Positions 8,124 to 31,155 of a stretch of 64,000 nucleotides of DNA are shown in pieces. The number at the start of each line of letters is the position of its first letter. Position 1 is the first letter of the stretch. Made by a program: the position numbers and the translations under genes. The notes below the pieces were generated by a model that saw only the letters and a program-made list of their open reading frames with translations, was not told the origin of the DNA and ran no database searches. The stretch covers positions 160,001 to 224,000 of the forward strand of contig CAWFDF010000014.1 of assembly GCA_963814585.1 (NCBI GenBank). The letters are read 5' to 3'. Origin of the DNA: an uncultured delta proteobacterium (GTDB lineage Bacteria > Myxococcota > Myxococcia > Myxococcales > Anaeromyxobacteraceae).

Positions 8124-9638
8124 CTACCCCGCCTTCCGGCTCGAGCCCGGGCCACCCGCCACCGGCCCGGTGATGGGGCCAAGCTCGGCCAGCATGGCGC
8201 GGACCGACTCGGGCATCTCGGCGCCGCTGGCCATGTGCTTCATCTCGTGGCCGAGGTAGCTCTTCTCGATGAGCAGCTTGAGCACGCTCACCATGAAGGC
8301 CCGCTTCTCCGGCGTGAGCTTGTCGAGGTTCTTGAACTTGTCGTGGAAGAAGTGGCCGGTGGCGCGGTGGAGCTCCCGCTGGACCTCCTCCAGGGTCATG
8401 TTGTCCGGCTTCATGACCGGCTCGACCAGGTTGTAGCGCCGGTAGTCCCGGGTGGCGACGTGCGCGTCGAGGTCGCCGGCGATCTCGGCGTAGGGCCAGG
8501 GCGTCAGGGCCAGGAAGAAGGCCATGTCCGGCGCGTACCACTTGGCCAGCTCGACCGTCTTGCGGATGGACGCGGCGGTCTCGTCGGGCGTGCCGAGCAC
8601 GAAGGAGGTCTCGCTGACCATGCCGTGCTGGTTGATGAGGTCGATGGCCCTCTTCGACTCGTTGACCTTGATGTCCTTGTGGTACAGGTCGAGCGTCGAC
8701 TGGCTGGTCGACTCGACGCCGACGTAGATGTGGCTGATGCCCGCCTTGACGTACTTGGGCAGCATCCGCTCGTCGCGGATGACGTCGTCGACGCGGGTCT
8801 CCATGAGGATCTCGACGCCGACCTGCCGCTCGATCAACAGGTCGAGGATGGCCTCCCAGCGCGCCCGGTCGGAGGTGGGGGTCTCGTCGGAGAGCATGGT
8901 GACCGCGACGCCGTAGCTGTCACGAAGGTGCTCCAGCTCGGCGACGAACCTGAGCGGCTGGCGCCCGCGCCAGCTCCGCCCCCAGAACTTCTGCTGCGAG
9001 CAGAAGCTGCAGCGCGAGGAGCAGCCGCGCGCCGAGTTGGCGATGGCGAGGCGGCCGTGCGGCCTGGGCCGGTAGTGGTAGAGCGGCCAGTCGAGGAGGT
9101 CCCAGGCCGGCTGGACGGCGTCGATGTCGGCGAGGAGCGCGCGCGGGCCGTTGCTGGCCGGATGGCCATCCCGGCGCCAGGCCAGCCCGTCGATCCGGTC
9201 GAACCCCTCGCCGGCCTCGAGCGCCTTGACCAGCTCGATGACGGTCAGCTCCCCCTCGCCGCGGACCACGAAGTCGACGCTGGGGTCGTCGCGGAGGATC
9301 TGCTCCCAGCAGAAGGTGGCGTGGACGTTGCCGATGACGGTCTTGACCGCCGGGTTCCAGGCCTTGGCGGTGGCGCAGATGACGCGACTGTCGGGCTCGG
9401 TGGCCGTGATGGCGGTGGTGCCGACCAGGTCCGGCTTGAAGGCCTCGATCTTCTTCCGGATGTCATCGTGCGACGCGAACAGGCTCATCGCGTCGTAGAT
9501 CTCGACCTCGGCGCCGGCCAGCCGGGCCGCCCCGGCGACGTAGGCGAGGTTGAGCGGCATCCAGACGCCGGCCGACTCGACCACCCCGGAGTGATAGGGC
9601 GCGGTGACGAGCAGGACTCGGAGGCGGCGAGCGGTCAT
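8124..9638 (-). CDS. Cobalamin-binding radical SAM enzyme
   Basis: N-terminal B12-binding region (PLNLAYVAG, PDLVG, GNVHATF, VVRGEGE) and ARGCSSRCSFC (CxxxCxxC), GVES. Confidence 0.92.
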   Translation of the reverse strand: MTARRLRVLLVTAPYHSGVVESAGVWMPLNLAYVAGAARLAGAEVEIYDAMSLFASHDDIRKKIEAFKPDLVGTTAITATEPDSRVICATAKAWNPAVKTVIGNVHATFCWEQILRDDPSVDFVVRGEGELTVIELVKALEAGEGFDRIDGLAWRRDGHPASNGPRALLADIDAVQPAWDLLDWPLYHYRPRPHGRLAIANSARGCSSRCSFCSQQKFWGRSWRGRQPLRFVAELEHLRDSYGVAVTMLSDETPTSDRARWEAILDLLIERQVGVEILMETRVDDVIRDERMLPKYVKAGISHIYVGVESTSQSTLDLYHKDIKVNESKRAIDLINQHGMVSETSFVLGTPDETAASIRKTVELAKWYAPDMAFFLALTPWPYAEIAGDLDAHVATRDYRRYNLVEPVMKPDNMTLEEVQRELHRATGHFFHDKFKNLDKLTPEKRAFMVSVLKLLIEKSYLGHEMKHMASGAEMPESVRAMLAELGPITGPVAGGPGSSRKAG

Positions 9639-9811
9639 GCGGTTTCTCCCGAGCAAGCGACCCCGGCTGGCGGGGTGCTCTCACTGTACCATGGCCGCCG
9701 GTCCACGACGGCTGGTTCCAGGAAAGATCCCTGTCCTTTCAGCTACATCGGACAAACGATTGTTTGGAGTCCGGGGGGCGTCAAACTGTCGCATGCTAGA
9801 CTCCGCCTCCG

Positions 9812-10162
9812 ATGCGCGACCGGCTCACCATCCTCAACGCCTTCGTCCACGACGTCGCCACCGGCACCTGGATCGGGACGCTCCTCCTCCTGACCATGCT
9901 CCACCGGGAGGCCCAGCGGCCGGCCTGGTTCCTGGCCGGCCACCTGGTGCCCGGCCTGGAGCGGAAGTTCCTGGTGGTCACCTGGGTGAGCCTGGCGGTG
10001 ATCGTGGCCACCGGCGTCATCCGCATGGTGACCTGGAAGGTCTTCGGCTGGACCGGGGACATGGAGAAGAGCCGCATCCAGCTGCTCAAGGTGAAGCACG
10101 CCCTGCTCGGCGTGGTCTTCGCCGCCGGCACCCTGTACCAGTGGCTGCTGGTCTACTCGTGA
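9812..10162 (+). CDS. Small membrane protein, CopD/DUF4149-like
   Basis: 116 aa, three TM segments, FVHDVATGTWIG and LLKVKH; preceded by extended -10 TGcTAGACT (9794-9802). Confidence 0.55.
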   Translation: MRDRLTILNAFVHDVATGTWIGTLLLLTMLHREAQRPAWFLAGHLVPGLERKFLVVTWVSLAVIVATGVIRMVTWKVFGWTGDMEKSRIQLLKVKHALLGVVFAAGTLYQWLLVYS

Positions 10163-10275
10163 TCGCCTCGCGCCGCCGCCGCTGCCCCCCTGGCTTGCGC
10201 GACGCACCGCACGCTGAACGATGTAGGTCGCGGCGCGCGACGTGGTCACGTCCCGACTCCGTCCAGTGAGGATCG

Positions 10276-13200
10276 TCAGTAGGCCCCGCCCAGGCGAGTA
10301 GGTCTCGGTGGTGTCGCCGAGCGTGCAGCCCCCAGGTGCTGCCGCAGGGACTGGCCGCTCTGCAGCGTACGCGGGAGTAGCGTCGAGCCGCCGATCTGCG
10401 GCGGGCTGGTGGTTCGACATGCTCCGTGGTGTTGCGGATGAAGGCGTAGGGCCTGGCGTTGACCTGTGCCGGGGAACCGGTCGAGGTTCCAGCCCACCGT
10501 CCCGGTCTTGCGGTCACCGGTGAAGCCGGCAGCACGTTGACCCCGTGGACGTCCTGCGCGCGAACCGGCCGCACCACCGCGGTCGTGTAGTCGCTGCCGT
10601 GACACCTGTTGCAGCCATACTGCAGGTAGACCTGCATGGTGTTGTTGGAGTCGAAGTCGAATGCCGAACCCGGGCCGTGTGACACGTTGGAGTTGCACGT
10701 GTTGGTCGCGCCCCCGCAGGTGTCGTAGCCTGGCGTGGCAGACGGCGCAGAGCGTCGCACCGGTGGTCGCCGAGGGCGCCGTGCCGCTGGCCGTGGCGTT
10801 GCCCCGGAGCGTCACCGCTCCGCCGTGGGCCGTGACCGTGGTGGTGATGGTGCCGCGTGACTCCCGTGCCGCGCATGGCAGTCCCAGCAGGAGAGCAGCA
10901 GACCCCAGCCGGTGGTGGTGCCGGCCGTCTTGGTCGACGCTCCAGGGCGCCACCATGCGGGTGCCTGATGCGTAGGAGTTGTTCTGCTTCCCGGTCACCG
11001 GGTGGTACGAGGAGTTGGTCGGCGCGAAGGAGGCGTTGACGTCGGCGACGCCGCCCGCGACGCCGTTGGCGGTCACGCCCGCGCCCACGTAGGCCGCGCC
11101 CGCGATGGTGGTGCCGAAGGGCTTCTCCGCCGTCCCGGTCGTCGGCACCCGCGCCGAGGCGCTCAGCGCGCCGTTGCCGTCGTGGCACTTGAGGCACTGG
11201 TTGATCATGATGGCCTGGACCGCCGGCTCCAGCGTGGCGCTGGCCAGGTTGCGGCTGAACGCCGTGAAGGTCGCGTCGGTGGCGGTGCTGGCGTAGGCCC
11301 CGGCGCCGGTGCCGCCGAAGGTGACCCCCTTGATGTTCAGACCGGTGTCCGGATCCCTCAGGTTGATGAGCCCGTCCCTGTGGACGCCCGACGGGTTGCC
11401 GGTGGCCGCGTCGCCTTCCATGTGGCAGACCACGCAGTCCCACTTGGTGACGACGGTGTTGGCGGGCACGCCGCCACTGGAGGAGCGTTTGTGCGACCAG
11501 GCGTTCCTGAACTCGGGGACGATGGGGCGCCTCGTCCCCTGGACCTCGTCGTGGCAGGTCACGCAGTCGCCGCCGCCGTCGAGCTGGCCGTTGATGTGGC
11601 TCAGCTGGTTCACCGCCGCGATGGTGCTCGCCGAGGTCGGCGAGCTGGCGTAGCCCGGGTGGCAGGAGCCGCAGAGCGGATCGCTCGGGTGGGCCGCCGT
11701 GACGGGTGGCAGGCCGTGGCAGGAGCCACACTGGGCCGCGCTGGCCGCGCCGGTCCAGGCCGGGGCGTTGACCTGGCCAGCGGCCGTGTCCGTGCTCTTC
11801 GGATCGTGGCAGTAGGTGCTGGAGCAGGTGGGCTGCGCGTAGGAGGCCGCCTTGGTCTCGAAGGCGTTGTCGCCGGCCAGGGCGCCGAAGGTCAGCGTGG
11901 CGCGGGCCACGCCGGTCCCCACGCCGGTGGCGTGGGCGACGTCGGTGTTGCTCGTCGGGACCAGGTGGCACTCGGCGCAGGCGATGGCCGTGGAGCGCCA
12001 GCGCGGCGTGTTGCCGGCGCCGTTCCCCACCAGGTGGGCCTCGTGGGCGCCGACGCCGACGGCCGTGGTGGCCACCGCGCCGACGGTGTCGTACGAGTTG
12101 GTGCCGCTGCCCGAGGCCCCCGGCGCCGACTTGAGCGGCGCCGCCGCCAGGACGTTGGCTGCCCCCAGCTCGCCGTGGCAGCCGGTGCAGCCCGAGGTCG
12201 ACCTGGTGACGATGGCGTCGACGTGGGTCGCCGCCGTCACCGTGGTGCTGGTGGAGCCGGCGTGGCAGGTGCTGCAGGTGGTGTTCTGCGGGTGCGGGTA
12301 GGTCGGCTGCGAGGCGGTGGTCCCCTGCCCGTGGCAGGCGGTGCAGGCCAGCTTGGCGGTGGTCCCGGTGCCCCAGCTCACCGTGTTGGCGAGCTTGCCG
12401 CCCGGGAAGTTGCCGTGGCAGTAGGTGTTCGAGCAGGTCTTGCTGGCCGCGCTGTAGGCCGTCGGCGTGATCCCGCCCGCCGTGGCGATGTTGCCCCACA
12501 GCACCGGGTTGGCCGGCGTGGCGTGCGGCGCGGTGGTCCAGACCTGGCCGAGGTGGCAGTTGTCGCAGCGCAGCGCATTCGAGAGCGGCCCCGGCGCCGC
12601 GACGTCGCCCTGGTTCACGTGGGCCTGGTGGGCCCCGACCAGGTTGCCGGTGGCCACGCCGCTGCCGTCGAGCGGCGGCGCCGCCTTGACCAGGTTCTGC
12701 CCGTTGACGTCGTTCCAGACCGCGGTGGCGACCGGGGTCCGGCCCACCGCTCCGTGGCACGAGGTGCAGGTCATGTTGGCCACGTCGAGCGACCCGTTGA
12801 TGTGGGCCAGGGCGTTGACCGCGGCGATGGTGCTGGCCGTGGACGGCGCGTCGGCGTAGCCGGGGTGGCAGCCGCTGCAGGCCGTGCTGGACGTGTGGCC
12901 GCTGGCCAACGGAGGCAGGCCGTGGCAGGAACCGCACTGGGCCGTGGCGGCCGCCCCGATCCAGGACGGCGCCTGGTTCAGTCCGGCCACCGTGTCGGCG
13001 CGCGGCGCGTGGCAGTAGGTGCTGGCGCAGCCGGGCTGCGTGTAGGTCGGCGTCCGGGCCCCGAAGGCGTTGTCGCCGGCCAGGGCGCCGAAGGTCAGCG
13101 TGGCGCGGGCCACGCCGGTCCCCACGCCGGTGGCGTGGGCGACGTCGGTGTTGCTCGTCGGAACCACGTGGCACTCGGCGCAGGCGATGGCCGTGGAGCG

Positions 13201-16200
13201 CCAGCGCGGCGTGTTGCCGGCGCCGTTCCCCACCAGGTGGGCCTCGTGGGCGCCGACGCCGACGGCCGTGGTGGCCACCGCGCCGACGGTGTCGTACGAG
13301 TTGGTGCCGCTGCCCGAGGCCCCCGGCGCCGACTTGAGCGGCGCCGCCGCCAGGACGTTGGCCGCCCCCAGCTCGCCGTGGCAGCCGGTGCAGCCCGAGG
13401 TCGACCTGGTGACGATGGCGTCGACGTGGGTCGCCGCCGTCACCGTGGTGCTGGTGGAGCCGGCGTGGCAGGTGCTGCAGGTGGTGTTCTGCGGGTGCGG
13501 GTAGGTCGGCTGCGAGGCGGTGGTCCCCTGCCCGTGGCAGGCGGTGCAGGCCAGCTTGGCCGTCGTCCCGGTGCCCCAGCTCACCGTGTTGGCGAGCTTG
13601 CCGCCCGGGAAGTTGCCGTGGCAGTAGGTGTTCGAGCAGGTCTTGCTGGCCGCGCTGTAGGCCGTCGGCGTGATCCCGCCCGCCGTGGCGATGTTGCCCC
13701 ACAGCACCGGGTTGGCCGGCGTGGCGTGCGGCGCGGTGGTCCAGACCTGGCCCAGGTGGCAGTTGTCGCAGCGCAGCGCATTCGAGAGCGGCCCCGGCGC
13801 CGCGGCGTCGCCCTGGTTCACGTGGGCCTGGTGGGCCCCGACCAGGTTGCCGCCGGCGGTGCCGCTGGCGTCGACCGGCGGCGCCGCCCTGACCAGGTTC
13901 TGCCCGTTGACGTCGTTCCAGACCGCGGTGGCGACCGGGGTCCGGGCCACGTCGCCGTGGCAGGTCGTGCAGGTCATCGGGACGAGGTCGAGCTGGCCGT
14001 TGATGTGGTTGGTCGCGCTGACCGTGGTGCCGGTGTAGCCGGAGTGGCACCGGCCGCAGTCGGTGCTCGACTGGGGGTGGGTCCCACCGGGCAGCGTCGC
14101 CGTCGCCCCGGCGCCGGCCCCGTGGCAGGAGTTGCAGGTGAGCGCGGCGTCCTGCGCCCAGCCCACGGTGAAGGCGGGGCCCTTGCCGTTGGTGAAGTTG
14201 CCGTGGCAGTAGGTCGCGGTGCAGCCGACGCCCCCGGCCCGGCTGTAGGTCGGCGTCACCGCCGGCGACCAGATGGTGTTCACCGCGCCGCGCGCCAGCG
14301 CGCTCCACGTCAGGGTGGCCCGCGCCCCGCCCGTCCCGACGCCCACGGCGTGGGCCGTGTTGCCGTCGGCCGGCACCAGGTGGCAGTCGGCGCAGGCGAT
14401 GGCCGCCGACCGGTAGGTCGTCTGCTGCAGGTGGGCCTGGTGCGCGCCGTACTCGTTGGTCGTCGCCGCCACCGGCCCGCCCGTCGTCGACAGGCCCGTC
14501 CCGCCGGCGCCAGGCGCCGAGTTGAGCGGCGTCGCGGCCAGCACGCCCGGCGACGGCGTCGAGAGCACGCCGTGGCAGCCGCTGCAGCCGAAGGTCCCCC
14601 TGTTCACCGCACCGTCGACGTGGGTGCTCGCCGTCACCGAGCTCGCGGAGTAGCCGGCGTGGCAGGTGACGCAGGTGGCGTTCTGCGGGTGCGGGTAGCC
14701 CGGCTGCGGCGCCGCCACCGACTGGCCGTGGCAGGCGTTGCAGGCCAGCTTGGTGGCGGCCGTCGGTCCGGTCCCCCAGGCCACCACGTTCGACGGGATG
14801 CCGCCGGCGAACTGGCCGTGGCAGTACGTCGAGCTGCAGCTCAGGGTGGCCGGCGCGTAGGCCGCCCCGGCGGCGACGGCGATGTCACCGAAGGTCACCG
14901 TGGTCACGCCGTCGGAGTGGGTCGTCGAGGACGGCACCACGTGGCAGGCGACGCAGCGCTGGGCGGCGGAGAGCGGGGCGCCCGTCGCCCCCTGGTTGAC
15001 GTGGGCGAGGTGGGCGCCGACCTGGTTGCCGGAGGCCAGGCCGCTCAGGTCGATCGGCGGGGCGGACTGCTGCAGCGGCTGGTTGAAGACGTCGAGGTCG
15101 GTGGCGGTGGCCACCGAGGCGCGGGCGAGGTTGCCGTGGCACCCCGTGCAGGTGTCGGCGGCGGCGTCGAGCCGGCCGTTGAGGTGGAGCGCGGCGCTGG
15201 CGGTGGTGGTGGTGTAGCCGGCGTGGCAGACCGAGCAGTCCGTGTTGCCCTGCGGGTGCGTCCCGCCGGGCAGCGAGGCGATGGCGACGGTGGCGGCCGC
15301 GGCGCCGTGGCAGGAGTTGCAGGTCAGGGGGCCGACCGTGGTCCAGCCCACGGTGGCGTTCTTGCCGTTGCGGAAGTTGCCGTGGCAGTAGGTCGAGGCG
15401 CAGCTGCCGCCGGCGGTGCCGCCGGCGAACGAGGCCGACCCCGTGTAGGACGGGTTGACTGGCGCCCCGGACCAGGCGTTGACCGCCCCGGTGGCGGTGG
15501 TGCTCCAGGCCAGGGTGGCCCGGGCGCCGCCGGTGCCGGCCCCGCCGGTGGCGTGGGCGGTGTCGGTGTTGCCGGACGGGAGCGCGTGGCACTCCCCGCA
15601 GGCGATGGCGACGCGGCCGATGACCCCGGCGCCGAGGTGGGCCCTGTGGGCTCCCACGCCCGCCGAGGTGGCGGCCGTCTGGCCAACCGTGTCCATGGTG
15701 CCCAGGGCGTTCGTGCCGGTGGCGCCAGGCGCCGCGGCCGCCAGGTTGGCGGGCGGCGTCACCGTCACGCCCGTGGCCGAGAGCTGGCCGTGGCAGGAGG
15801 TGCAGCCCGACGTGGTCTTGTTCACCGTCCCGTCGACGTGCGTGGCCGCCGTCACCGCCGAGGAGGTGTAGCCGGCGTGGCAGGTGGCGCAGGCCAGGTT
15901 CTGCGGGTGCGGGTGCGGTGGCTGGGCCGCCGTGGCCTGGCCGTGGCAGGCGTTGCAGGCCAGCTTTCCGGCCGCGTTCCAGCCCACCGTGTTTCCCTGC
16001 AGGCCCCCCGTGAACTGGCCGTGGCAGTAGGTGGCGCTGCAGCCCCGGGCGACCGGGTCGTAGGTCGGCGAGGCGCCGTTGGTGGCCAGGCCGCCGAAGG
16101 TGACGAGGACGCTGCCGTTGGAGTGCGCCCCGGCGAGCGGGATCAGGTGGCAGGCGTCGCAGCGGACCGCGCTGGAGAGCGCCGGCGGCGTGGCCCCCTG

Positions 16201-19200: not shown

Positions 19201-19512
19201 GCGGTCGCCGTCGGGCGTGCCGTCCGGCTTCACCATGTGGCCGGCGTCGCCGATCAGCCCGGGGACCTTGTGGCAGTCGTCGCAGGCGACCAGCTTGCCG
19301 AGGTGCGCCGTGTGGGCGCCGATCGCGCCGCCGATCGCGGAGCCGGCGAGGTCGTTGGGCGGTGCCCCGGTCTGGTCGCCGGCCGCTCCGCCGTGGCAAC
19401 CGAGGCAGCTGCCCGGCCCGGATGGGTTGGGTGGCGTTCGCCTCGCCTTGTCGCAGCTTCCGAGGGAGAGCGCGGCGAAGAGGGCGGCGACTGCGAAGGC
19501 ATGACGGCGCAT
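10276..19512 (-). CDS. Giant multihaem c-type cytochrome lipoprotein with CxxxxCH...CxxCH repeat domains; 3' end frameshifted as given
   Basis: Start MRRHAFAVAALFAALSLGSC (lipobox) after GAGGT. Manual count: 58 in-frame CxxCH, 2 more in shifted frames, 3 CxxxCH, 10 CxxxxCH. True C-terminus is spread over three frames at 10276-10940. Confidence 0.93.
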   Translation of the reverse strand: MRRHAFAVAALFAALSLGSCDKARRTPPNPSGPGSCLGCHGGAAGDQTGAPPNDLAGSAIGGAIGAHTAHLGKLVACDDCHKVPGLIGDAGHMVKPDGTPDGDRRAEITWGARATHGGTFSASFSPAPAPGKGGSCTVYCHGASLGASGGSATTPAWGDPPMNCGSCHGDAVANPSSPNTTGAPPSHAAGLTPTDCATCHPDTVTPAGQLTTTGAHIDGQVQASGCTACHGDTTRGEPVGSQAAWAPPRDSRGQTTGPQVGAHLRHVSTVASLGSRISRPFECSECHRVPTNGGPHGQPVIQWATGTNDLVDLDGLSPSYAAGSCASTYCHGGSLAGGSNKTPAWNTPGAGACGSCHFISGPVAPHPVTDKSGLAITAATQCAQCHPGTVNADGTINTGNGLHVNGLPEFDYHPVGYSNPATHGPQALQGLAACATCHGSSFAGQGAAPSCTACHAAAGRPTWLTDCTFCHGAGNRAADAAFAAVGNPPVAANRAAPPEGTQGETGANQPAVGAHLAHIQPSSSLNPAGALAIQIQCTECHGAVLPGDEKHADGSVAIGWGSLARARSAVPTPAEGNLIAGWEANPTCTNYCHGITLAGGGAKVNPNWVAGAPEAACGTCHAARPGTWHPNNGACGQCHPGYSASGVNALTHVNGLIDPAGTNCTSCHGGPSGNPAPPYATTGASSGVKVGAHQPHTAGGTLVAAGYGCGTCHTGPASLRHGNDQVDMAWTAPATAGGVTPAPLAGALPVAAWEAAPTCTNYCHGASLTAAGGTNKTPSWTAGAGQVACGTCHGAPPPLAASPAGANHPQNPVCASCHGAGYAVAGISGTARTTHVDTLVTLVVSGCTSCHGDRAVAGVTLGNGLAASAPSGGNQLDTTGQGLVSAPGVGAHAAHASGTTYRSAALACTECHALPPTNADRAHATGAGTGGARATLAWGNLALGTPASWNNEAVAPSYAGSTSAAYGTTAGSCASTYCHGQFKNGGKATVAWTSTGGLTCNSCHGAGTGPTATLPGGSHPQGSTACGSCHGAGYGGTAVDKATHLDGLVQVSTLSCSSCHGDPARAPVLTAAELDANGAPLVQASPPAGVTTANQVGAHLAHVNQGATPPALSSAVRCDACHLIPLAGAHSNGSVLVTFGGLATNGASPTYDPVARGCSATYCHGQFTGGLQGNTVGWNAAGKLACNACHGQATAAQPPHPHPQNLACATCHAGYTSSAVTAATHVDGTVNKTTSGCTSCHGQLSATGVTVTPPANLAAAAPGATGTNALGTMDTVGQTAATSAGVGAHRAHLGAGVIGRVAIACGECHALPSGNTDTAHATGGAGTGGARATLAWSTTATGAVNAWSGAPVNPSYTGSASFAGGTAGGSCASTYCHGNFRNGKNATVGWTTVGPLTCNSCHGAAAATVAIASLPGGTHPQGNTDCSVCHAGYTTTTASAALHLNGRLDAAADTCTGCHGNLARASVATATDLDVFNQPLQQSAPPIDLSGLASGNQVGAHLAHVNQGATGAPLSAAQRCVACHVVPSSTTHSDGVTTVTFGDIAVAAGAAYAPATLSCSSTYCHGQFAGGIPSNVVAWGTGPTAATKLACNACHGQSVAAPQPGYPHPQNATCVTCHAGYSASSVTASTHVDGAVNRGTFGCSGCHGVLSTPSPGVLAATPLNSAPGAGGTGLSTTGGPVAATTNEYGAHQAHLQQTTYRSAAIACADCHLVPADGNTAHAVGVGTGGARATLTWSALARGAVNTIWSPAVTPTYSRAGGVGCTATYCHGNFTNGKGPAFTVGWAQDAALTCNSCHGAGAGATATLPGGTHPQSSTDCGRCHSGYTGTTVSATNHINGQLDLVPMTCTTCHGDVARTPVATAVWNDVNGQNLVRAAPPVDASGTAGGNLVGAHQAHVNQGDAAAPGPLSNALRCDNCHLGQVWTTAPHATPANPVLWGNIATAGGITPTAYSAASKTCSNTYCHGNFPGGKLANTVSWGTGTTAKLACTACHGQGTTASQPTYPHPQNTTCSTCHAGSTSTTVTAATHVDAIVTRSTSGCTGCHGELGAANVLAAAPLKSAPGASGSGTNSYDTVGAVATTAVGVGAHEAHLVGNGAGNTPRWRSTAIACAECHVVPTSNTDVAHATGVGTGVARATLTFGALAGDNAFGARTPTYTQPGCASTYCHAPRADTVAGLNQAPSWIGAAATAQCGSCHGLPPLASGHTSSTACSGCHPGYADAPSTASTIAAVNALAHINGSLDVANMTCTSCHGAVGRTPVATAVWNDVNGQNLVKAAPPLDGSGVATGNLVGAHQAHVNQGDVAAPGPLSNALRCDNCHLGQVWTTAPHATPANPVLWGNIATAGGITPTAYSAASKTCSNTYCHGNFPGGKLANTVSWGTGTTAKLACTACHGQGTTASQPTYPHPQNTTCSTCHAGSTSTTVTAATHVDAIVTRSTSGCTGCHGELGAANVLAAAPLKSAPGASGSGTNSYDTVGAVATTAVGVGAHEAHLVGNGAGNTPRWRSTAIACAECHLVPTSNTDVAHATGVGTGVARATLTFGALAGDNAFETKAASYAQPTCSSTYCHDPKSTDTAAGQVNAPAWTGAASAAQCGSCHGLPPVTAAHPSDPLCGSCHPGYASSPTSASTIAAVNQLSHINGQLDGGGDCVTCHDEVQGTRRPIVPEFRNAWSHKRSSSGGVPANTVVTKWDCVVCHMEGDAATGNPSGVHRDGLINLRDPDTGLNIKGVTFGGTGAGAYASTATDATFTAFSRNLASATLEPAVQAIMINQCLKCHDGNGALSASARVPTTGTAEKPFGTTIAGAAYVGAGVTANGVAGGVADVNASFAPTNSSYHPVTGKQNNSYASGTRMVAPWSVDQDGRHHHRLGSAALLLGLPCAARESRGTITTTVTAHGGAVTLRGNATASGTAPSATTGATLCAVCHARLRHLRGRDQHVQLQRVTRPGFGIRLRLQQHHAGLPAVWLQQVSRQRLHDRGGAAGSRAGRPRGQRAAGFTGDRKTGTVGWNLDRFPGTGQRQALRLHPQHHGACRTTSPPQIGGSTLLPRTLQSGQSLRQHLGAARSATPPRPTRLGGAY
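11859..13945. repeat. Near-identical intragenic direct repeat, period 1,203 bp (401 aa)
   Basis: 11859-12742 and 13062-13945 are almost identical; duplicated shadow ORFs (12378/13581, 12467/13670) confirm the 1,203 offset. Confidence 0.95.
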
Positions 19513-19606
19513 TGAGGCGACCTCGTACCGTCCTCCGGTGACAGGAGGATGCGGCGACCGGGATTGCGGAGACGCCCCATCGTGCCGGATTCGCACCAGC
19601 AGCGAA

Positions 19607-19620
19607 TTGATGCAGGTCAA
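19607..19620. promoter_or_regulatory. FNR/CRP-family-like box upstream of the giant cytochrome
   Basis: TTGAT-GCAG-GTCAA, one mismatch from TTGAT-N4-ATCAA, in an AT-richer intergenic stretch about 95 bp before the start codon. Confidence 0.5.
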
Positions 19621-19721
19621 GCGATCGAAAATTTACCTGTCGGAACGCACTTTTCACGACATGGCCGCGGCGCCGAGGCCAGCGCGCAGAGCGCCCGTGG
19701 ACGGGGGGCGGGGCTGGAACG

Positions 19722-21220
19722 TCACAGCTTGTTCGGGCCGGGTGTCTCCGACTGCAACCCGGCCGGGTGGTCCTCCAGCTTCTGCTTTCGCGCCTGCTCC
19801 ACGAACCACTCCATGGGGCGCTCGGTCTGGTCCTTGAACGTCTGGAGGGACTCGTCGCGCTGGCGCGCGGCGTCCTCGTCACCCTGCGAGACCAGGATCT
19901 CGTCCACCACCTGCGGGCAGGAGGCCACCGAGCCCGGGCGGGCCTCGATCTCCTCGCGGGTGCTCGGCTCGGCCGGTGGCGCCCTGGCGATCAGCATCTT
20001 CAGGTCGATGGAGAAGTTCACGTAGGTCTCCAGCATCCGGAAGATGGCCGAGTCGCCCATGCCGCCCACCGGCCGCTCGTCGGGCAGCGGCGAGACCTTG
20101 CCGCCCTCGAGCTTGGCCCGGCCCACGATCTCGCAGCCTCGACCCGCCGTCGGTGGTGTACCCGAGGTTGTCGGTGATGACCGCCAGCACGGTGGGGACG
20201 TTGGCGAGGTCCCAGTGGGCCATCAGCCCGACCTTCCCGTCGGGCAGTGGCTCGAGCGTGTCGACGTCCATGGCCAGCACGCGCGACCAGGGCGGCACCG
20301 GGCGGATCCGGTTGCGCGGCGGCAGGCCCTGGACGCGGCGCCGGAGGGCGTCGTCGAAGAGGTTGGTGGCGGTCTCGGCCTCGCCGAGCACGTTGACGCA
20401 GTGTGAGGAGGGGACCCCGAGCGTCTCCTCCACCATGGCGTAGTAGTCGTCGCGGGTCACCGTCCCGAAGCGCCCACGGTAGCCGCCGCCGTCGCAGATG
20501 CGGCTCCCGGTAGGCAGCTTGAAGGTCCATCTTCTTCCGCTTGCAGGCCTGGAAGAAGTAGACGTAGGCGGAGGTGGCGCCGATGATCGCCACCGGCACG
20601 CCACTCGCCTCCGCCTCGCGCAGCGCCTTGAGCAGGCCGTGGATGTCGATGCCGGTCCGGTTCAGCAGGAACTGGCTGTCGGGGGTGCCGAAGTGGGTCC
20701 GCGTCTGCTCCATGCCGATGGCCATGCCCATGGAAGGCGCCATCTCCGGGCTGGGGGCCAGGATGAGGATGCGGCAGCGCCGCCCCTCCTCGAAGTCGGG
20801 GAAGAGGTAGGCGCCGGTCATCCGCTTGTTGGCGCCGAAGACCAGCCGCTTGCCGTCCTCGTCGCGGAAGATGCGGCCCCGCTGGGTCAGGCTGGTGGTC
20901 CCGCCGGTGAGGCAGCCCATCACCGCCCGCTCCAGCGGGAAGGAGGCCACCAGGTGGGTCTTGAACATGTCGTTGTAGACCAGCGGGATGTCCTGCCAGC
21001 GAGACACGTCGCCGGGGCGCACCTTCTTGGCCTCACAGAACTCGCGGAAGATCGGGTTCACCTCGTGGTGAAGGGCGAACATCCGCAGGCAGGAGCCGTT
21101 GAAGTCGGGCACCTCGGCGTCCACGCCGGCCTCGATGTACCCGAGGACCTCGTCGGTCAGCCTCCGGCGCTCGAGGGCGGGGCCGGACGGCTCGGAGGTG
21201 GCGGCGGGCGGGGTCGGCAT
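19722..21220 (-). CDS. LuxE/PaaK-like acyl-protein synthetase with two apparent +1 frameshifts (probably sequencing errors)
   Basis: Three consecutive frames join: WQDIPLVYNDMFK...TGGTT...KKM / TFKLPTGSRICDGGGYRG...PPWSRV...WDLAN...ITDNLG / CEIVGRA. Removing one base near 20527 and one near 20144 gives a 498-aa ORF. Confidence 0.8.
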
Positions 21221-21285
21221 GCTCGGTTCCTTTGCACGAGGAAGGCCAGCAGGAGCGGCGCGCTCGCGCACCGCGGCACCGGCGG

Positions 21286-22653
21286 CTACGGGGCGATCGA
21301 ACCGGTGAGGGCGGGACCGGGCCGCGCCTGCTTCTCGCGCACGGCCTGCTTCGATTCCTTCCACTTCTGGTACGCGATCTTCATGCCGGTGCGGACCGGG
21401 AGCTGGTTCATCAGCGAGAGGACGTGGGCGTGGGGGAAGCCGGACGCCGGGACCTCGAACATGTGCTTCCAGATCCGCCCCAGCTTGAGCAGCTCCAGCG
21501 AGGTCTCGTAGAACCGCTCCTCGCGGACGTCCGGCGTCATGGCCGGATCCGGGTGCTCGAAGAGCGCGTAGGCGCCCGTGTAGTACTCCCAGCCCAGGTC
21601 CCTGTAGAGGTAGGGCTCGTACTCCTGGCGCAGGTCGGTGCCCGGGTACGGGACCACCAGCGAGGGGTGCATGCTCACGCCCAGCCGGTCGGCCAGGTCG
21701 ACGGCGCGCCGGTAGTCGTCGAGCGAGTCGGCGCGCGAGCCGAGCATGAAGAAGAGGGAGACGTCGATGCCGTGGTCCTTCAGGGTCCGCACCGCCCGCT
21801 CCCGGTCGACGCCGACCTTGCGGTCGGCGCGGTACGCCTCGAGCCCTCCATCGGTGATCGACTCCCACCCCACCCAGACCGTCAGCATGCCGCTCGCCCG
21901 GGCCGCCCTGAGCATGCGGGAGCCCTCCGGGGCGAGCACCGGCGCCAGGCTGCCGAACCCCATCCACTTCTTCCTGCTGCCCCGGAGCGCCGTGAAGAGC
22001 TCGGTGGCCCGATCCGTCTTCCCGAGCCACCAGATGTTCTCGTCGCCGTTGATGTACATCTTGCCCGGGATGGCATCGACGTCGCGCACCACGTCGTCGA
22101 TGGGGCGCATGCGGATCCGCGAGCCGAAGACCTTCCTCACCGTGCAGAAGCTGCACGGGTACGGGCAGCCGCGGGCGGTGCTGACGATGCGGAAGTCGTG
22201 GCCGTGCTTGAGGAGGCCGTAGGCCGGCGTCGGCAGGCCGTCGAGCGGCAGCTGCTCGCCCCGGTAGAAGGGCTGGAGCCGGCCGGCGCGGAAGTCCGCC
22301 AGGACGGTCGGCCAGACCGACTCGGCCTCGCCGGTCACCACCGCATCGGCGTGTTGCCTGGCCTCCTCGGGCAGGGCCGTGGCGTGCATGCCGCCCACCA
22401 CCACCTTGATGCCCCGGGCGCGCAGCCCGTCGGCGATCCGGTAGCCGGGGACGGAGGTCGGCGTCAGCAGGCTGATGGCGGCCAGGTCGCACTCCAGCGT
22501 GTCGAAGACGTCCGGCGTGGCGCTGGCGCTGTAGAGCTCGATCTCGATGCTGGGATCGGCCTGGCGGGTGAGTGCCGCCAGGTACTCGAGGATGGGCGGC
22601 GCGACCGGGGTCCAGCCGAAGGGGAGCGGTGGCTTGATGATGCAGAGCTTCAC
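21286..22653 (-). CDS. Cobalamin-binding radical SAM enzyme
   Basis: VVVGGMHATALPEEA, DAVVTGEAE, TARGCPYPCSFC, GWES, PYPGT. Confidence 0.92.
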   Translation of the reverse strand: MKLCIIKPPLPFGWTPVAPPILEYLAALTRQADPSIEIELYSASATPDVFDTLECDLAAISLLTPTSVPGYRIADGLRARGIKVVVGGMHATALPEEARQHADAVVTGEAESVWPTVLADFRAGRLQPFYRGEQLPLDGLPTPAYGLLKHGHDFRIVSTARGCPYPCSFCTVRKVFGSRIRMRPIDDVVRDVDAIPGKMYINGDENIWWLGKTDRATELFTALRGSRKKWMGFGSLAPVLAPEGSRMLRAARASGMLTVWVGWESITDGGLEAYRADRKVGVDRERAVRTLKDHGIDVSLFFMLGSRADSLDDYRRAVDLADRLGVSMHPSLVVPYPGTDLRQEYEPYLYRDLGWEYYTGAYALFEHPDPAMTPDVREERFYETSLELLKLGRIWKHMFEVPASGFPHAHVLSLMNQLPVRTGMKIAYQKWKESKQAVREKQARPGPALTGSIAP

Positions 22654-22760
22654 GTCAGTCCTCGTCCCCCGGAGGCGGCGGATCGTACCCGATGCCGGAG
22701 GCGGAGTGGAGAGGCCTGCCGGTAAACGAAGTTATTCGAAGCCCTCGGAGGGCTGCGAAA

Positions 22761-24083
22761 TCACAGCGGCTCCACCTTCCAGGCGAGCCGGAGACCATCC
22801 TTCACGCCATAGGCGACCGACCTGCCGTCGGCCGTGAACCGGACCGGGAAGACCTGCTGGTAGGGCGGATGCTGCCGGACCGTCCTGCCGCCGAGGTCGG
22901 CCACCACCACGAAGCGCCTCCCGTCCTGGCGCGCCCGGTAGACGAGGAACCTGCCGTCCGGGCTGAACGCCGGCGAGACCACCCGGTCGAGCGGCGGCCC
23001 TTCCTTGCCGTTCACCACCACGAACCAGCGCTCGCCTCGGCGCGCCACGTAGGCATGTGAGCGGCCGTCGCTGGAGTAGACCAGCGCCTCGAGCTCGTCC
23101 ACGGCCGGTCCGGCAGCCTCGCCCGCGGCGAAGGGCTGGAGCAGGCGAACCAATCCGCCCTCCAGGATCGCGACGCCGAGGGCCTTCTTCCCTGGACGGA
23201 TCACCGGGGGTCCGAACACCTCCCCGGGCGGCAGCGGCTCCTCCAGGTCGTCGAGCACCACCAGCCGCCGGCCGGCTCGCTCCGCCAGGTAGGCCACCGA
23301 CGCGCCGTCCGGACCGAGGGCCGGGCTGGACGCCGCATCGTAGCCCGGCCCCCGGTGGACCCGGCCTGGCGCGGCGAAGGCCAGCTTCAGCACGGTGGCC
23401 TTCCCTTCCCGTTCCCCGACGGCCGCGAGCCACCTCCCATCCGCGCTGCTCACCAGCTCGGAGGCGCGTGCCTCGACCACCACCTGCTCCTGGAAGTCGA
23501 GGTCGCTCACCAGCAGCCGTCCGACGCCCTGCTGGTCGGGGTCGGCGATGAAGGCGAGCCGCGAGGAGTCGCCGCTGAACCGGAGCTCCGGAGGGGGCGA
23601 CCGGGCGCCCGGGCCCAGCGTGCCGTCGATGACCGGGTGCCACCGCTCCCCGGCCCGGGCCAGGTAGGCGACGTGCGCGCCGTCGGGGCTGAAGGCGGGG
23701 GCCTGGATCTCGGCGAACCCCGGCCCCTCCGCGCCATCGACGACCAGCCGCCAGGTCCCGTCGACGAGCGCGCCGTGGGCGCAGCGCCGCCCGTCGGGGC
23801 TGAGGACGATCGTCCCCACGGCGGCGAAGGCCTTGCCGGGGCGCCCGTCGTGGACGACCTGGAAGCGGCCGCCCTCCTGCTCGACCCAGGCGACGCCACC
23901 GCCGCGCTCGGCGAAGAGGTACTCCCGCTCCGCGTCCGCCGGCAGGGTGGCGAGGACGGCCGGCCGGTCGGCGACGGCGGTTGGCGGAGGGCCGCGCACC
24001 GGCTCCGGCCTTCCGCAGCGGCAGCCCGCGAGCGACAGCCAGACGCTGCACGCGGCCGCCAGCGTTCCGAGGCGACGATCCAT
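22761..24083 (-). CDS. Lipoprotein with TolB/WD40-like beta-propeller repeats
   Basis: Lipobox LAGC; repeated (F/L)SPDG..AY.A motifs (LSPDGRR, FSPDGAHVAY, FSGDSSRLAF, YSSDGRSHAY, FSPDGRFLVY, FTADGRSVAY). Confidence 0.8.
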   Translation of the reverse strand: MDRRLGTLAAACSVWLSLAGCRCGRPEPVRGPPPTAVADRPAVLATLPADAEREYLFAERGGGVAWVEQEGGRFQVVHDGRPGKAFAAVGTIVLSPDGRRCAHGALVDGTWRLVVDGAEGPGFAEIQAPAFSPDGAHVAYLARAGERWHPVIDGTLGPGARSPPPELRFSGDSSRLAFIADPDQQGVGRLLVSDLDFQEQVVVEARASELVSSADGRWLAAVGEREGKATVLKLAFAAPGRVHRGPGYDAASSPALGPDGASVAYLAERAGRRLVVLDDLEEPLPPGEVFGPPVIRPGKKALGVAILEGGLVRLLQPFAAGEAAGPAVDELEALVYSSDGRSHAYVARRGERWFVVVNGKEGPPLDRVVSPAFSPDGRFLVYRARQDGRRFVVVADLGGRTVRQHPPYQQVFPVRFTADGRSVAYGVKDGLRLAWKVEPL

Positions 24084-24096
24084 GGCGGGTCTGCCT

Positions 24097-24921
24097 TCAG
24101 TGCTCGACGCGGAAGCCCTTGTGGAAGGTCTCGACCGAGAAGGGAATGCCCCAGTAGCTCACGATCATGACCACCACCGCGGCCAGCGCGTACCAGGCCA
24201 GCCGCCGCCCGCGCCAGCCCATGGTGATGCGCAGGTGGAGGTAGATGCCGTAGACCAGCCAGGAGACCAGGGACCAGACCTCCACCGGGTCCCAGTTCCA
24301 GTAGCTGCCCTTGGCCTGGTCGGCCCAGAGCGCCCCGGTCACGATCATCAGCCCGTACATGATGAAGCCGGCGGCGACGAACCGGTAGCCGAGCCGGTCG
24401 ATGTCGGCCGGGGACGGCAGCCGGTCGTAGATGCCGCCCGATCGCCCCTCCTTGAGCAGGAACATCAACGCCATCCCCGCCGCCATGAGCACGGCGGCGA
24501 AGCCGATGGTGGCGCCGACGATGTGCGCCCAGAGCCAGCCGCTCTGCAGCGCCGGGGCCACCTGCGACGCGGCCGCCTCGCGCAGCGTGCCGGCCCAGCC
24601 GATGAGGACGAAGACCACCGGGAGCACGAAGGCGCCGAGCGGCCGCACCCTGGGCGTCGAGGCCTGCACCACCAGGAAGAGCGCCACCGCCATGAAGGTC
24701 CCGAGCGCCAGCGACTCGGAGATGGAGAAGAACGGGCTGACCCCGCCGGCCACCCAGCGGACGGCGATGCTGGAGAGGTGGGCGACGAAGCCGAGCGCGG
24801 CCGCGCCCAGACCGGCGGCGAGCAGCTTGCCGTTCTCGGCAATGAACCCGAAGACGTAGGCGAAGGCGCTCACCCCGTAGAGCCCGATGGCACACCAGAA
24901 CAGCAGCTGCTCGACGTTCAC
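24097..24921 (-). CDS. ccsA: Cytochrome c biogenesis protein CcsA/ResC (System II)
   Basis: WWD domain GALWADQAKGSYWNWDPVEVWSLVSWLVYGIYLH; LQSGWLWAH; about 8 TM. Confidence 0.92.
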   Translation of the reverse strand: MNVEQLLFWCAIGLYGVSAFAYVFGFIAENGKLLAAGLGAAALGFVAHLSSIAVRWVAGGVSPFFSISESLALGTFMAVALFLVVQASTPRVRPLGAFVLPVVFVLIGWAGTLREAAASQVAPALQSGWLWAHIVGATIGFAAVLMAAGMALMFLLKEGRSGGIYDRLPSPADIDRLGYRFVAAGFIMYGLMIVTGALWADQAKGSYWNWDPVEVWSLVSWLVYGIYLHLRITMGWRGRRLAWYALAAVVVMIVSYWGIPFSVETFHKGFRVEH

Positions 24922-26126
24922 GGGATCTCCTTCGGCACCGGGGTGCCTGGCTCTGGGCGGCTCGGTGCGCGCCTGCCGCGCTTCTCGTCCTGCCGGATGC
25001 GGCCGATGAAGGTCATGGTCATGCCGGCCAGGCCCGCCCAGAGGCTGGTGAGGATGACCGTGAGGCCGGGGTCGTGGCGGACCGTCATGCCGACCCAGTA
25101 TCTCACCTCCCGGGCCTCCAGCCGGTGGTCCCCGGCCTCGAACGTGCCGCCGACGGTCACCTTGCCGGTGGCGGCCGGCTCCGTGGCGCCTGGCACCGCC
25201 TGGTGGTCCTTCCCCGTGGCGCCCCCCGGCCCGGCGCCCGCCTCGCCCAACGGCCAGGTGAAGAACTCCACCTGCCCCGCCCGATCCTGCTCCCGGTCCG
25301 GCACGTACCCCACCTGGAGCAGCAACGCCGGCCTGTCGGGGGGAGGCGGGAACGGGAAGGAGCCCGGCTCCCTGGCTGAACCGGTGGTGTAGAGGAAGGC
25401 CTCCTTGCCCATGGGAATGCTCTGCAGCGGGACCATGGCCGCGTAGAGCTCCCGACCCTGCCGGTCGTGGAGGACGACGCCGAGCGAGTAGCCCTCCTTC
25501 GAGACCAGGTAGCGCACGCCGCGGTGGTCCAGGTTCTGCGTCATGTAGATGGTCGCGGTCGCCCTTCCCTCGCCGTCGCCGACCGCGATCTCGTAGGCGG
25601 CGCGCTTGTCCTGCCCGTCCACCTTGTAGTCCCGGTGCATCTTCAGGAGCGTGGTCTCGCCTCGGAGCCGCGTGAAGTCGAAGAGGCGCCCCACCTCCAC
25701 CGTGTCGTAGCTGGACGCCTCGCCGTTGGGCAGCGTCTCGCCCTCGGTCAGCCGCAGCACCCCCTTGAAGTGGAAGAGGCTGTTGAAGACCACGCCGCCC
25801 AGCAGGGCCATGAAGCTCACGTGGAACAGGATCATGCCCACGGAGATGAGCGTGAGCTTCCGGCCCCAGGTGCGGGCCAGGAAGGTCACTCCCGAGCTCA
25901 GCGCCAGCAGGACCAGCAGCCCGTTGAACCAGAGCGTGTCGAAGATCAGCGCCCAGGCCCGCTCGCCGGTGAAGACGGTCACGCCCACCAGGCAGCAGGC
26001 GAGGACGGCGACCAGCAGGGCGATGGCGAGGCGCGGCGAGGAGATCACCGCGAAGGCCCGCCGGCCCAGGCCGGGCCCGGGGCGGCGCGGAGGCACGGTC
26101 GCGGCTGGGCCTTCGACGGGCGTCAT
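24918..26126 (-). CDS. resB: Cytochrome c biogenesis protein ResB/CcsB-like
   Basis: ISSPRLAIALL, IFDTLWFNGLLVLL, GMILFHVS, LRLTEGET, VRHDPG then C-terminal TM; GTGA-coupled to ccsA. Confidence 0.85.
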   Translation of the reverse strand: MTPVEGPAATVPPRRPGPGLGRRAFAVISSPRLAIALLVAVLACCLVGVTVFTGERAWALIFDTLWFNGLLVLLALSSGVTFLARTWGRKLTLISVGMILFHVSFMALLGGVVFNSLFHFKGVLRLTEGETLPNGEASSYDTVEVGRLFDFTRLRGETTLLKMHRDYKVDGQDKRAAYEIAVGDGEGRATATIYMTQNLDHRGVRYLVSKEGYSLGVVLHDRQGRELYAAMVPLQSIPMGKEAFLYTTGSAREPGSFPFPPPPDRPALLLQVGYVPDREQDRAGQVEFFTWPLGEAGAGPGGATGKDHQAVPGATEPAATGKVTVGGTFEAGDHRLEAREVRYWVGMTVRHDPGLTVILTSLWAGLAGMTMTFIGRIRQDEKRGRRAPSRPEPGTPVPKEIP

Positions 26127-26176
26127 GGATGGGCGCACCTTACCAAAGCTCCACGCCGCACCGTGACCGGAGTCAA

Positions 26177-26356
26177 AGCGCCCCTCGCCTGGCCCGAGCC
26201 CGTCGCGAGGCACACGATGCCGTCGGCGAGCCGGGTCGCACGACGACGGAGCAGCGGAAGCGGGCTGGTGGCCCGCTGAGCAGCGGACGGAGGAGTCCGC
26301 CCGGCGCAGCCAGGCAGCGTGCGCCGCAGTAGGGATCGGGTCAGGCGAGTGGCGCT
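26177..26356. repeat. 180-bp MITE/REP-like element with 25-bp imperfect terminal inverted repeats
   Basis: AGCGCCCCTCGCCTGGCCCGAGCCC (26177-26201) vs reverse complement of 26332-26356, 22/25 match; core 26226-26301 resembles 52657-52731. Confidence 0.65.
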
Positions 26357-26367
26357 ATCAGCCCGGC

Positions 26368-27021
26368 CTACTCGTCCACCCGGACCACGCCCCGCTTGAT
26401 GGCGAAGCGGACCAGCTCGGTGCGGTTGTGCAGCCCGAGCTTCTCCATCACGTGCTCGCGATGCGTCATGGCGGTCTTGACGCTGATGCCGAGCACGTCG
26501 GCCACCTCCTTGTTGCTCTTCCCGTCGGCCACCAGCTTCAGCACCTGCTTCTCGCGATCGGTGAGCCCGTCGTACGGGTCGGCCTGCCCGGTCGAGGCCG
26601 GCCCGCCCTCCGACATGGCGACCCGGGCCACGGCCGGGTCGAGCACCAGCCCCCCCTTGTGGACGGCGCGGATGGCCCCGGCCAGCTCGGCGCCGGCCGA
26701 GCGCTTGAGCACGTAGCCCGAGACCCCGGCCTGGAGCAGCCGCCGCACGTACTCGCGGTCATCGTACTGGGAGAGGATGAGGATGCGGGCCCGGCGCCCC
26801 TGCTTCTTCAGCTCCAGGCTGGTCTCGATGCCGCCCAGCCCGGGCATGGCGATGTCCATCAGCACCACGTCGGGGTCGAGCCGGGCCACCGCCGCCAGCG
26901 CCTCCTGCCCGTCGCTGGCCTCGCCGACCACCTCGAGGTCCTCGTGCTCCCTGAGCAGCGCGCGCACGCCCTCGCGCAGGATGGCGTGGTCGTCGACGAT
27001 GAGGATGCGGATGGCGCTCAT
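26368..27021 (-). CDS. NarL/LuxR-family response regulator
   Basis: IRILIVDDHAILREG, PDVVLMDIAMP, LTDREKQVLKLVADGKSNKEVADVLGISVKT. Confidence 0.95.
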   Translation of the reverse strand: MSAIRILIVDDHAILREGVRALLREHEDLEVVGEASDGQEALAAVARLDPDVVLMDIAMPGLGGIETSLELKKQGRRARILILSQYDDREYVRRLLQAGVSGYVLKRSAGAELAGAIRAVHKGGLVLDPAVARVAMSEGGPASTGQADPYDGLTDREKQVLKLVADGKSNKEVADVLGISVKTAMTHREHVMEKLGLHNRTELVRFAIKRGVVRVDE

Positions 27022-31138: not shown

Positions 31139-31155
31139 GGTGTGCTCCCGGCGCG

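Follow-up and report, generated by a model that had tools for sequence, protein, structure and literature searches.

Introduction

System II cytochrome c maturation offers precedents for haem lyases dedicated to unusual attachment motifs, with enzymes for CxxCK and CX15CH covered in the available part of PMC12285233. For the ordinary CXXCH motif, K842 and W833 are the proposed Cys-pocket residues of CcsBA (PMC10663686, in the sections available). In Geobacter, Table S5 of Aklujkar 2009 (PMC2700814) lists a ResB, a ResC, an acyl-protein synthetase, a conserved hypothetical protein, a radical SAM (S-adenosylmethionine) protein and a 23-27-haem cytochrome, in this order. Here we describe a locus of similar content in a 64,000-nucleotide stretch (the window) of an uncultured member of the Anaeromyxobacteraceae (contig CAWFDF010000014.1, positions 160,001 to 224,000), where a ResB/CcsA pair accompanies a giant multihaem cytochrome. 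The genes fall into two layers that recur in other genomes: a widespread core, comprising a variant ResB/CcsA, a small membrane protein and a BchE-like B12 radical SAM enzyme, and a rarer 'type II' addition, comprising a beta-propeller protein, a distinct CcsA, a second B12-binding radical SAM enzyme (rSAM2) and a long LuxE-like protein. We consider it an evenly balanced question whether these genes form a dedicated System II module that serves a non-CxxCH site at the C-terminus of large surface cytochromes.

Results

A C-terminal cysteine tail tracks the module

Past their last CxxCH, the cytochromes adjoining the module carry an HG motif and then extra Cys residues at the C-terminus, in a strictly C-terminal pattern, C-x(3-15)-C...YxxGGx[Y/F]. 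The class-B form of this tail, found beside type II modules and in the window, is laid out as DxHG...AFIRN...Cys pair...YxxGGxY. The window's own copy, the proposed client, lies at 10276..10640 on the minus strand, where it is frameshifted and matches the class-B profile (A1) at 10341-10595 (E 2.3e-16); an intact class-B paralogue is encoded elsewhere in the same genome assembly (G000:C8:544309-544566). Profile A1 was built from 11 sequences and the class-A profile (A2) from 25 of 37 class-A tails; the 12 left out are mostly of an 'IHG' subtype, and class A is therefore under-counted (e.g. in G023).

We profiled 151 Desulfuromonadia and 201 Myxococcota genomes, accepting orthologues at identities of at least 65% for rSAM2, and of at least 53% in Desulfuromonadia or 41% in Myxococcota for the BchE-like enzyme. 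Among the Desulfuromonadia, the class-B tail and rSAM2 co-occur in 19 genomes, with one genome having the tail only, two the enzyme only and 129 neither; removing the six genomes that supplied training sequences leaves 13, 1, 2 and 129. A tail of either class and the BchE-like enzyme are similarly paired (31 both, 5 tail only, 2 enzyme only, 113 neither), and the 21 genomes with rSAM2 orthologues cover all 20 with a long LuxE. Within the Myxococcota, the six genomes with a class-B tail are the same six that have the long LuxE-like protein, and rSAM2 was seen in the module loci of all six, at the level of loci rather than of genome-wide profiles. All 15 tail-bearing Myxococcota genomes possess a BchE-like protein, and 4 of the 19 with that protein show no tail by the A1 and A2 profiles.

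The nearest cytochrome upstream of the module is of class B in 19 fetched loci, G232 and G344 being exceptions. Tail copies unlinked to a module are almost confined to module-bearing genomes. Five of five fetched 20-kb stretches around distal class-B copies gave no ccsA or resB match, and ccsA was not found on G000:C8, the contig of the intact tail paralogue; this fits distal copies being clients served in trans. From this pattern of co-occurrence, we conclude that the tail is probably the module's client.

A global search recovered 220 representative tails. Among the 150 best, two Cys at a spacing of 3-15 are found in 148 and a GGx[YFW] end in 145, and none contains Cys-His. His or Met is present in 121 of 140 parsed tails (31% expected), falling in the loop only in 58, after the second Cys only in 55 and in both places in 8; 19 have neither. 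In 30 of 37 class-A tails, a His or Met lies within six residues of the last Cys. Interchange of His and Met is typical of a haem axial ligand. Within the last 300 residues of a tail-bearing cytochrome, the four CxxCH are matched by four further conserved His. The ordinary haems thus have their ligands without the tail, and a ligand in the tail would be extra. These features tip us, by a narrow margin, towards a haem being attached at the tail.

Comparisons with known families and structures were uninformative: Pfam has no family for profile A1, PDB sequence searches with tail profiles A1, A2 and A6 gave nothing meaningful, an Atlas search with the tail returned generic cytochrome clusters only (under 0.9), and the AlphaFold model of the 300-residue terminal module was unusable (pLDDT, the predicted local distance difference test, 43). 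One module has a second class-B tail stranded within it, in degenerate form (L004:5242-5754). Class-A tail cytochromes of about 640 residues (L062:6195-8117 and related Elusimicrobia and Ignavibacteria loci) have an N-terminal tetrahaem domain similar to PDB 7tfs, which we take to be the OmcE filament, and to PDB 9yuq.

Wide haem motifs do not track the module

The giant cytochrome of the window is a lipoprotein (lipobox LGSC) encoded at 10276..19512 on the minus strand, within an open reading frame (ORF) spanning 10276-19620. That frame contains 58 CxxCH, 3 CX3CH and 10 CX4CH motifs, and the count of haem motifs reaches about 73 once 2 CxxCH in another frame are included. An internal duplication of 401 residues (349/401 identical) lies at about 11560-13970 on the same strand. 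The 13 wide sites had been counted in a first-pass annotation of the window and are real: in 1000 composition shuffles the average was 0.63 and no shuffle exceeded 4, and TIGR01904, the CxxxxCH/CxxCH domain, matches 13 stretches with 341.5 bits, over its cut-off. All 13 end in Y-C-H, and this invariant Tyr is not tied to the module.

The same annotation had taken these wide motifs as the sites at which a special haem is installed, and had proposed profiling the radical SAM, LuxE and CcsA families against CxxxxCH-domain cytochromes. In keeping with that idea, TIGR01904 is present in all 33 Desulfuromonadia genomes with a BchE-like enzyme. The profiling itself, once run, revealed no tracking, the domains being far commoner than the module: TIGR01904 is found in 84 of the 151 Desulfuromonadia, against 33 for the BchE-like enzyme, 21 for rSAM2 and 20 for the long LuxE. 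The BchE-like enzyme is missing from 51 of those 84, and for rSAM2 the counts are 21 with both, 63 with the domain only, none with the enzyme only and 67 with neither. All 27 Anaeromyxobacteraceae have TIGR01904 domains, compared with 18 matched by the BchE-like query at a loose cut-off (the other nine lack a match even at 1e-30) and six with LuxE. Conversely, TIGR01904 had no match in one Elusimicrobia and one Bacillota genome that bear module loci, and a wide motif is missing from 15 of 105 long class-B tail proteins. It is the tail that follows the module.

A lyase dedicated to CxxxxCH would be expected wherever CxxxxCH domains occur, and the variant lyase is not. In 10 module-less genomes with 10-35 TIGR01904 matches, every readable CcsA (19 of 29 hits, System II being the system looked at) has the canonical WDxK. 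In the archaeal MmcA, CXXXCH and CXXXXCH peptides bear plain haem c, according to the available part of PMC11024163. The profiling and the canonical CcsA of motif-rich, module-less genomes largely rule out the wide motifs as the module's client.

The variant ResB/CcsA lyase

The System II affiliation of the lyase is clear from its CcsA core and from an adjoining ResB with a 4-bp overlap. On the minus strand, ResB/CcsB occupies 24918..26213, with a start probably near 26126 (PF05140, 41.3 bits), and the type II CcsA occupies 24097..24921 (PF01578, 121.8 bits; TIGR03144, 176.7, under the cut-off of 187.6). By alignment, CcsA keeps H133, H229 and H267 (P-His1, TM-His2 and P-His2) and the WWD residues W199, W208, W210, D211 and W216. 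The ResB motif 'LFHVS' holds a candidate transmembrane His, which from its position we take to be TM-His1.

The canonical Cys-pocket residues are replaced, with K204 in place of W833 and V213 in place of K842 (numbering mapped by motif from the available part of PMC10663686). Across 76 CcsAs from module loci, K842 is exchanged for V, I, L or M in 61 of the 63 that are readable, and the 23 type II CcsAs additionally have K for W833. Judged by co-occurrence and this sequence variation, the module CcsBA is a candidate dedicated haem lyase for a non-canonical motif.

The BchE-like enzyme and the small membrane protein

The BchE-like enzyme (8124..9656, minus strand) has the architecture of BchE, PF02310 together with PF04055, and the CxxxCxxC cysteines C212, C216 and C219 are invariant. 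Against TIGR02026 it scores 387.3 and its relatives 394-441, under the cut-off of 481.35 and far from the 781-792 of true BchE. In a quick tree of 57 of the 97 rows collected, it groups with true BchE (SH-aLRT 99); by sequence, it is the sister group of true BchE. At 103 comparable conserved positions, 81 are identical to BchE, and 40 shared positions are rare in four control B12 radical SAM enzymes. A bacteriochlorophyll context is not apparent in the host assembly (91.7% complete), with no match to the PF00124 reaction centre and none over the cut-off to TIGR02021 (BchM). According to the available part of PMC13598231, the propionate of a porphyrin is oxidised by BchE, giving hydroxy, keto and olefin species, and a ring is closed; this makes haem a natural candidate substrate for the BchE-like enzyme.

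At L048:6552-8498 and in other Thermodesulfovibrio-type loci, the BchE-like enzyme is fused at its C-terminus to a START/polyketide-cyclase-like domain (PF10604) that may serve as a ligand-binding carrier. Separately, six Myxococcota stretches (L179-L184, from G014, G022, G004, G057, G020 and G190) contain BchE-clade genes, of which three of three scanned pass the TIGR02026 cut-off; in four of these stretches no other bacteriochlorophyll gene is evident among the listed ORFs.

Between the cytochrome and the BchE-like gene lies a gene overlooked by the first-pass annotation, encoding a 116-residue, CopD-clan-like membrane protein (9812..10162, plus strand). It features invariant H13, D14, R71 and K95 and a near-invariant H96. 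Its likeness to CopD is slight (PF05425, 17.2 bits against a gathering cut-off of 32.1; Atlas lead at 0.78 only). The model is a three-helix bundle (pLDDT 89.6) that retrieves generic helical bundles in a fold search (best Z 9.6), and a complex prediction of BchE-like enzyme, 116-residue protein and haem gave no verdict (score 0.00) and carries no weight here.

The type II additions

The long LuxE-like protein (19722..21220, minus strand; about 497 residues in relatives) keeps the ANL adenylation core, with E 1e-12 to a solved LuxE (PDB 7xc6_E; PF04443). The window fragment scores 36.6 bits against NF052244 (LuxE), for which the cut-off is 550, and the intact L001 copy has no NCBIfam match at 1e-20. 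A C-terminal extension of about 110 residues contains Cys433, present in 53 of 53 long forms. The best 120 homologues are 76-93% identical across three phyla, with Nitrospirota and Geobacteraceae among them. The motif RGC, which we presume to be the C-terminal acceptor motif of LuxE, was seen in an outgroup (L108).

The long LuxE-like protein is coupled to rSAM2 (21286..22653, minus strand), a B12-binding radical SAM protein of no named family. The probable lipoprotein at 22761..24083 (minus strand), a PD40/TolB-type beta-propeller, recurs in type II modules. At a separate site in the host genome (G000:C14:252000-263300, L238), four rSAM2-related B12 radical SAM genes stand with GH3 and MMPL genes, in what is probably a lipid-tailoring cluster.

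Conservation of the module

Eighty loci holding the BchE-like enzyme were examined, many on short contigs. A ccsA lies within 10 kb of the enzyme in 48; the loci further contain a multihaem cytochrome in 48 cases, the 116-residue gene in 38, a wide-motif (YCH) cytochrome in 12, an rSAM2 relative in 7 and LuxE in 4. They come from Myxococcota, Desulfobacterota, Nitrospirota, Ignavibacteria, Elusimicrobia, Bacillota, Acidobacteriota and others, and the BchE-like enzyme is found beside ccsA across at least eight phyla. Gene order is shuffled among loci, with membership retained. The association of giant multihaem cytochromes with a variant CcsBA, a LuxE-like protein and a pair of B12 radical SAM enzymes, drawn in the first-pass annotation from this one locus, is a recurring module, present in many bacteria that respire metals. 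Its suspicion that the arrangement is conserved yet functionally undescribed also bears out: the arrangement recurs in Geobacteraceae and other phyla, the Geobacter entries of Table S5 (PMC2700814) carry no function, and in a search of mainly open-access literature we found no paper that assigns the module enzymes a role in cytochrome maturation or describes the tail. The module is real, conserved and unexplained in the literature searched. By gene order, GSU2888/Gmet_0597 would be the Geobacter BchE-like enzyme.

Apparent radical SAM-tetrahaem fusions in L002, L023, L030, L037, L039 and L056 are artefacts of overlapping frames. A variant of the module is seen at L198:3883-16946 and L050:2534-11467, where FtrD/FTR1-like iron-uptake and MacB-type ABC genes lie between the ccsA/resB, rSAM2-like, small-protein and BchE-like genes.

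Gene order and assembly breaks

Pfam and NCBIfam domain calls confirmed every gene listed in the first-pass annotation. On the minus strand these run resB, ccsA, PD40 propeller, rSAM2, LuxE-like and cytochrome, separated by -4, 13, 107, 65 and about 210 bp. The co-oriented run proposed there holds as far as the cytochrome and does not extend to the BchE-like gene, because the plus-strand 116-residue gene intervenes, convergent with the cytochrome and divergent from the BchE-like gene.

The G+C content of the window is about 74%, and the assembly (G000) comprises 18 contigs. Compared with intact relatives, the LuxE-like gene has two one-base insertions, at about 20142-20146 and 20527-20530, each absent from contigs in three of four public runs of related DNA; contigs in runs X2 and X3 bridge the LuxE-cytochrome junction. 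Since related-DNA contigs lack the extra bases, these frameshifts are likely an assembly error, with a strain-specific lesion as the alternative cause. The cytochrome's final 220 or so codons (about 10276-10913) are split over three frames, and a metagenome pattern scan for its tail gave no matches. Other genes are split in this assembly, including a ferrochelatase and several cytochromes, which suggests insertion and deletion noise.

Directly upstream of resB (26428-28976, minus strand), a NarL/LuxR response regulator and a HisKA_3 sensor kinase may comprise a module regulator; a scan for promoters and terminators gave no informative signal. Just downstream of the module, the intervals 4465-8062 and 3198-4379 (both plus strand) encode a GT2 glycosyltransferase, a DUF2304 protein, a TPR-bearing multi-pass membrane protein and a GT4 protein. 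Many module loci of Geobacteraceae have glycosyltransferases and TPR membrane proteins of a similar kind on their flanks, a hint that the Thr/Ser-rich cytochromes may be glycosylated. Further away are an M56 peptidase gene, a small ORF and a 9-haem cytochrome (29449-32196, minus strand), followed by an RND efflux system (33375-39016).

Discussion

We propose that the tail constitutes a terminal haem site, formed by two widely spaced Cys and a movable His/Met on the giant extracellular-electron-transfer cytochromes of Geobacter, Anaeromyxobacter, Nitrospirota, Bacillota and others. A CcsBA of its own would load this site with a chemically new haem c, which the non-photosynthetic sister of BchE would make and which, in class B, the LuxE-like enzyme and rSAM2 would tailor further. 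As a complete scheme this is tentative, and we hold it somewhat less likely than not. Housekeeping CcsBA would load the ordinary CxxCH and CxxxxCH haems, and the variant ResB/CcsA would join one extra haem to the tail Cys pair, with the His/Met of the loop or beyond it as iron ligand. The BchE-like enzyme, aided by the two-His membrane protein, would alter the haem beforehand, while it is still in the cytoplasm; the likeliest reaction is oxidation of a propionate side chain (to hydroxy, keto or olefin species, or by ring closure) as BchE does. In class B, the LuxE-like enzyme may activate a carboxylate, of a haem propionate or a fatty acid, through an acyl-AMP and its C-terminal Cys, while rSAM2 contributes a further radical step and the propeller lipoprotein assists in the periplasm. 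Chemical modification of the tail haem is plausible from the enzymes present, and we lean somewhat against it.

Several observations weigh against this proposal. The tail itself is uneven: 19 of the 140 parsed tails have no His/Met, some class-A tails have a single Cys, profile comparison detects no homology between the two classes (probability 1.3%), the window cytochrome's tail is broken in the assembly, and a two-Cys loop of variable length is compatible with a disulfide as well. The co-occurrence counts are inflated by joint transfer, the genomes being related and the genes physically linked. They also have exceptions. The BchE-like enzyme was not found, even by profile search, in five tail-bearing Desulfuromonadia (G226, G280, G319, G343 and G354), all of which are drafts, the module of G354 stopping at a contig end; G226 has a class-B tail without a type II CcsA; and G232 and G344 have rSAM2/LuxE with no tail or only a weak one. 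Several BchE-like paralogues (L099, L102, L103, L190, L197 and L047) lie away from any cytochrome gene. LuxE occurs in only 4 of the 80 BchE-like loci, and is therefore not needed for the BchE-like step. Finally, the rSAM2 paralogues in the host genome (31-36% identity) sit with GH3 and MMPL genes, a context that suggests lipid chemistry and leaves a lipid role open.

The best-surviving alternative, which we rate as rather unlikely, builds on that context. The tail would be a disulfide-stapled signal for export or anchoring, rSAM2 and the LuxE-like enzyme would make a modified acyl group and pass it to the cytochrome or envelope, and the sole contribution of the extra CcsBA would be throughput for very large cytochromes. 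The strictly C-terminal position and aromatic end of the tail, its variable Cys spacing, the propeller lipoprotein, the clustering of rSAM2 paralogues with GH3 and MMPL, and the glycosyltransferases and TPR membrane proteins flanking many loci are all consistent with it, as is the view, in the available part of Aklujkar 2009 (PMC2700814), that each ResB/ResC pair works for the cytochromes near it so that these are expressed efficiently. It leaves unexplained the mutually exclusive placement of His/Met, the systematic loss of K842 and the presence of a BchE sister beside ccsA in at least eight phyla.

Less probable again is hitchhiking, in which the tailoring genes are unrelated passengers on a mobile cytochrome island and the BchE-like enzyme acts in general haem or cofactor supply. 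Patchy distribution, physical linkage, orphan BchE-like paralogues and the iron-uptake genes (FtrD/FTR1) that neighbour some of the copies in Nitrospirota and Geobacteraceae would suit this account. It sits poorly with the near restriction of unlinked tail copies to module genomes, the retention of membership despite shuffled order, a LuxE-like protein 76-80% identical across phyla, and the ferrochelatase of the host genome.

We regard as improbable a non-haem metal site in the tail (Cys2-His/Met, e.g. for copper) loaded by a CopD-like small protein. A Cys/His/Met ligand set does resemble copper sites, and the small protein has its sub-threshold CopD signal; yet it follows the BchE-like enzyme, the spacing of the ligands varies too much for a cupredoxin-like site, and the variant CcsA would go unexplained. 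Installation of a special haem at the wide motifs, given the profiling above, is very improbable indeed.

The extra ResB/CcsA pairs and huge cytochromes of Geobacter and relatives had no assigned function; the tail now gives them a concrete candidate client, and the obvious but wrong candidate, CxxxxCH, is removed. If a modified haem does occupy the proposed terminal site, it would amount to a new haem type or tetrapyrrole cofactor with a new attachment motif, and this haem could act as the point of contact, or as the catalytic haem, towards minerals, electrodes or partner cells. Such a finding would also give a function to the closest non-photosynthetic relative of BchE and a candidate ancestral role to the chlorophyll ring-closing enzyme, with a bearing on the origin of chlorophyll synthesis.

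Several described systems resemble parts of the module. Geobacter cytochrome biogenesis cluster 3 (Gmet_0592-0598 / GSU2887-2893) has the same gene types, although Table S5 (PMC2700814) gives annotation only, with no enzyme function and no tail. LuxE shares the ANL core with the module protein, which in contrast falls far under the NF052244 cut-off, has a C-terminal extension with the invariant Cys433 and lacks RGC at LuxE's position. BchE shares the B12 and radical SAM architecture, 35-37% identity and a common N-terminal signature; unlike BchE, the module enzyme scores under the family cut-off, differs at 22 conserved positions, lies beside cytochrome maturation genes and comes from a host without a reaction-centre or BchM match. 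Another parallel is with Wolinella succinogenes NrfI (CxxCK) and CcsA1 (CX15CH), each an extra CcsBA paralogue beside its client cytochrome that keeps the TM-His/P-His/WWD core (PMC10663686 and PMC12285233, in the parts available). The proposed tail site differs from theirs in having no His or Lys directly after the second Cys and a variable spacing; the module CcsA has K842 and W833 substituted, whereas the Wolinella enzymes keep conserved features in the available part of the review; and the module lyase comes together with radical SAM and adenylating enzymes of the cytoplasm. Measured against the tests that define those families, the module is not BchE, LuxE or CopD, and overall it appears to work like a dedicated System II lyase system.

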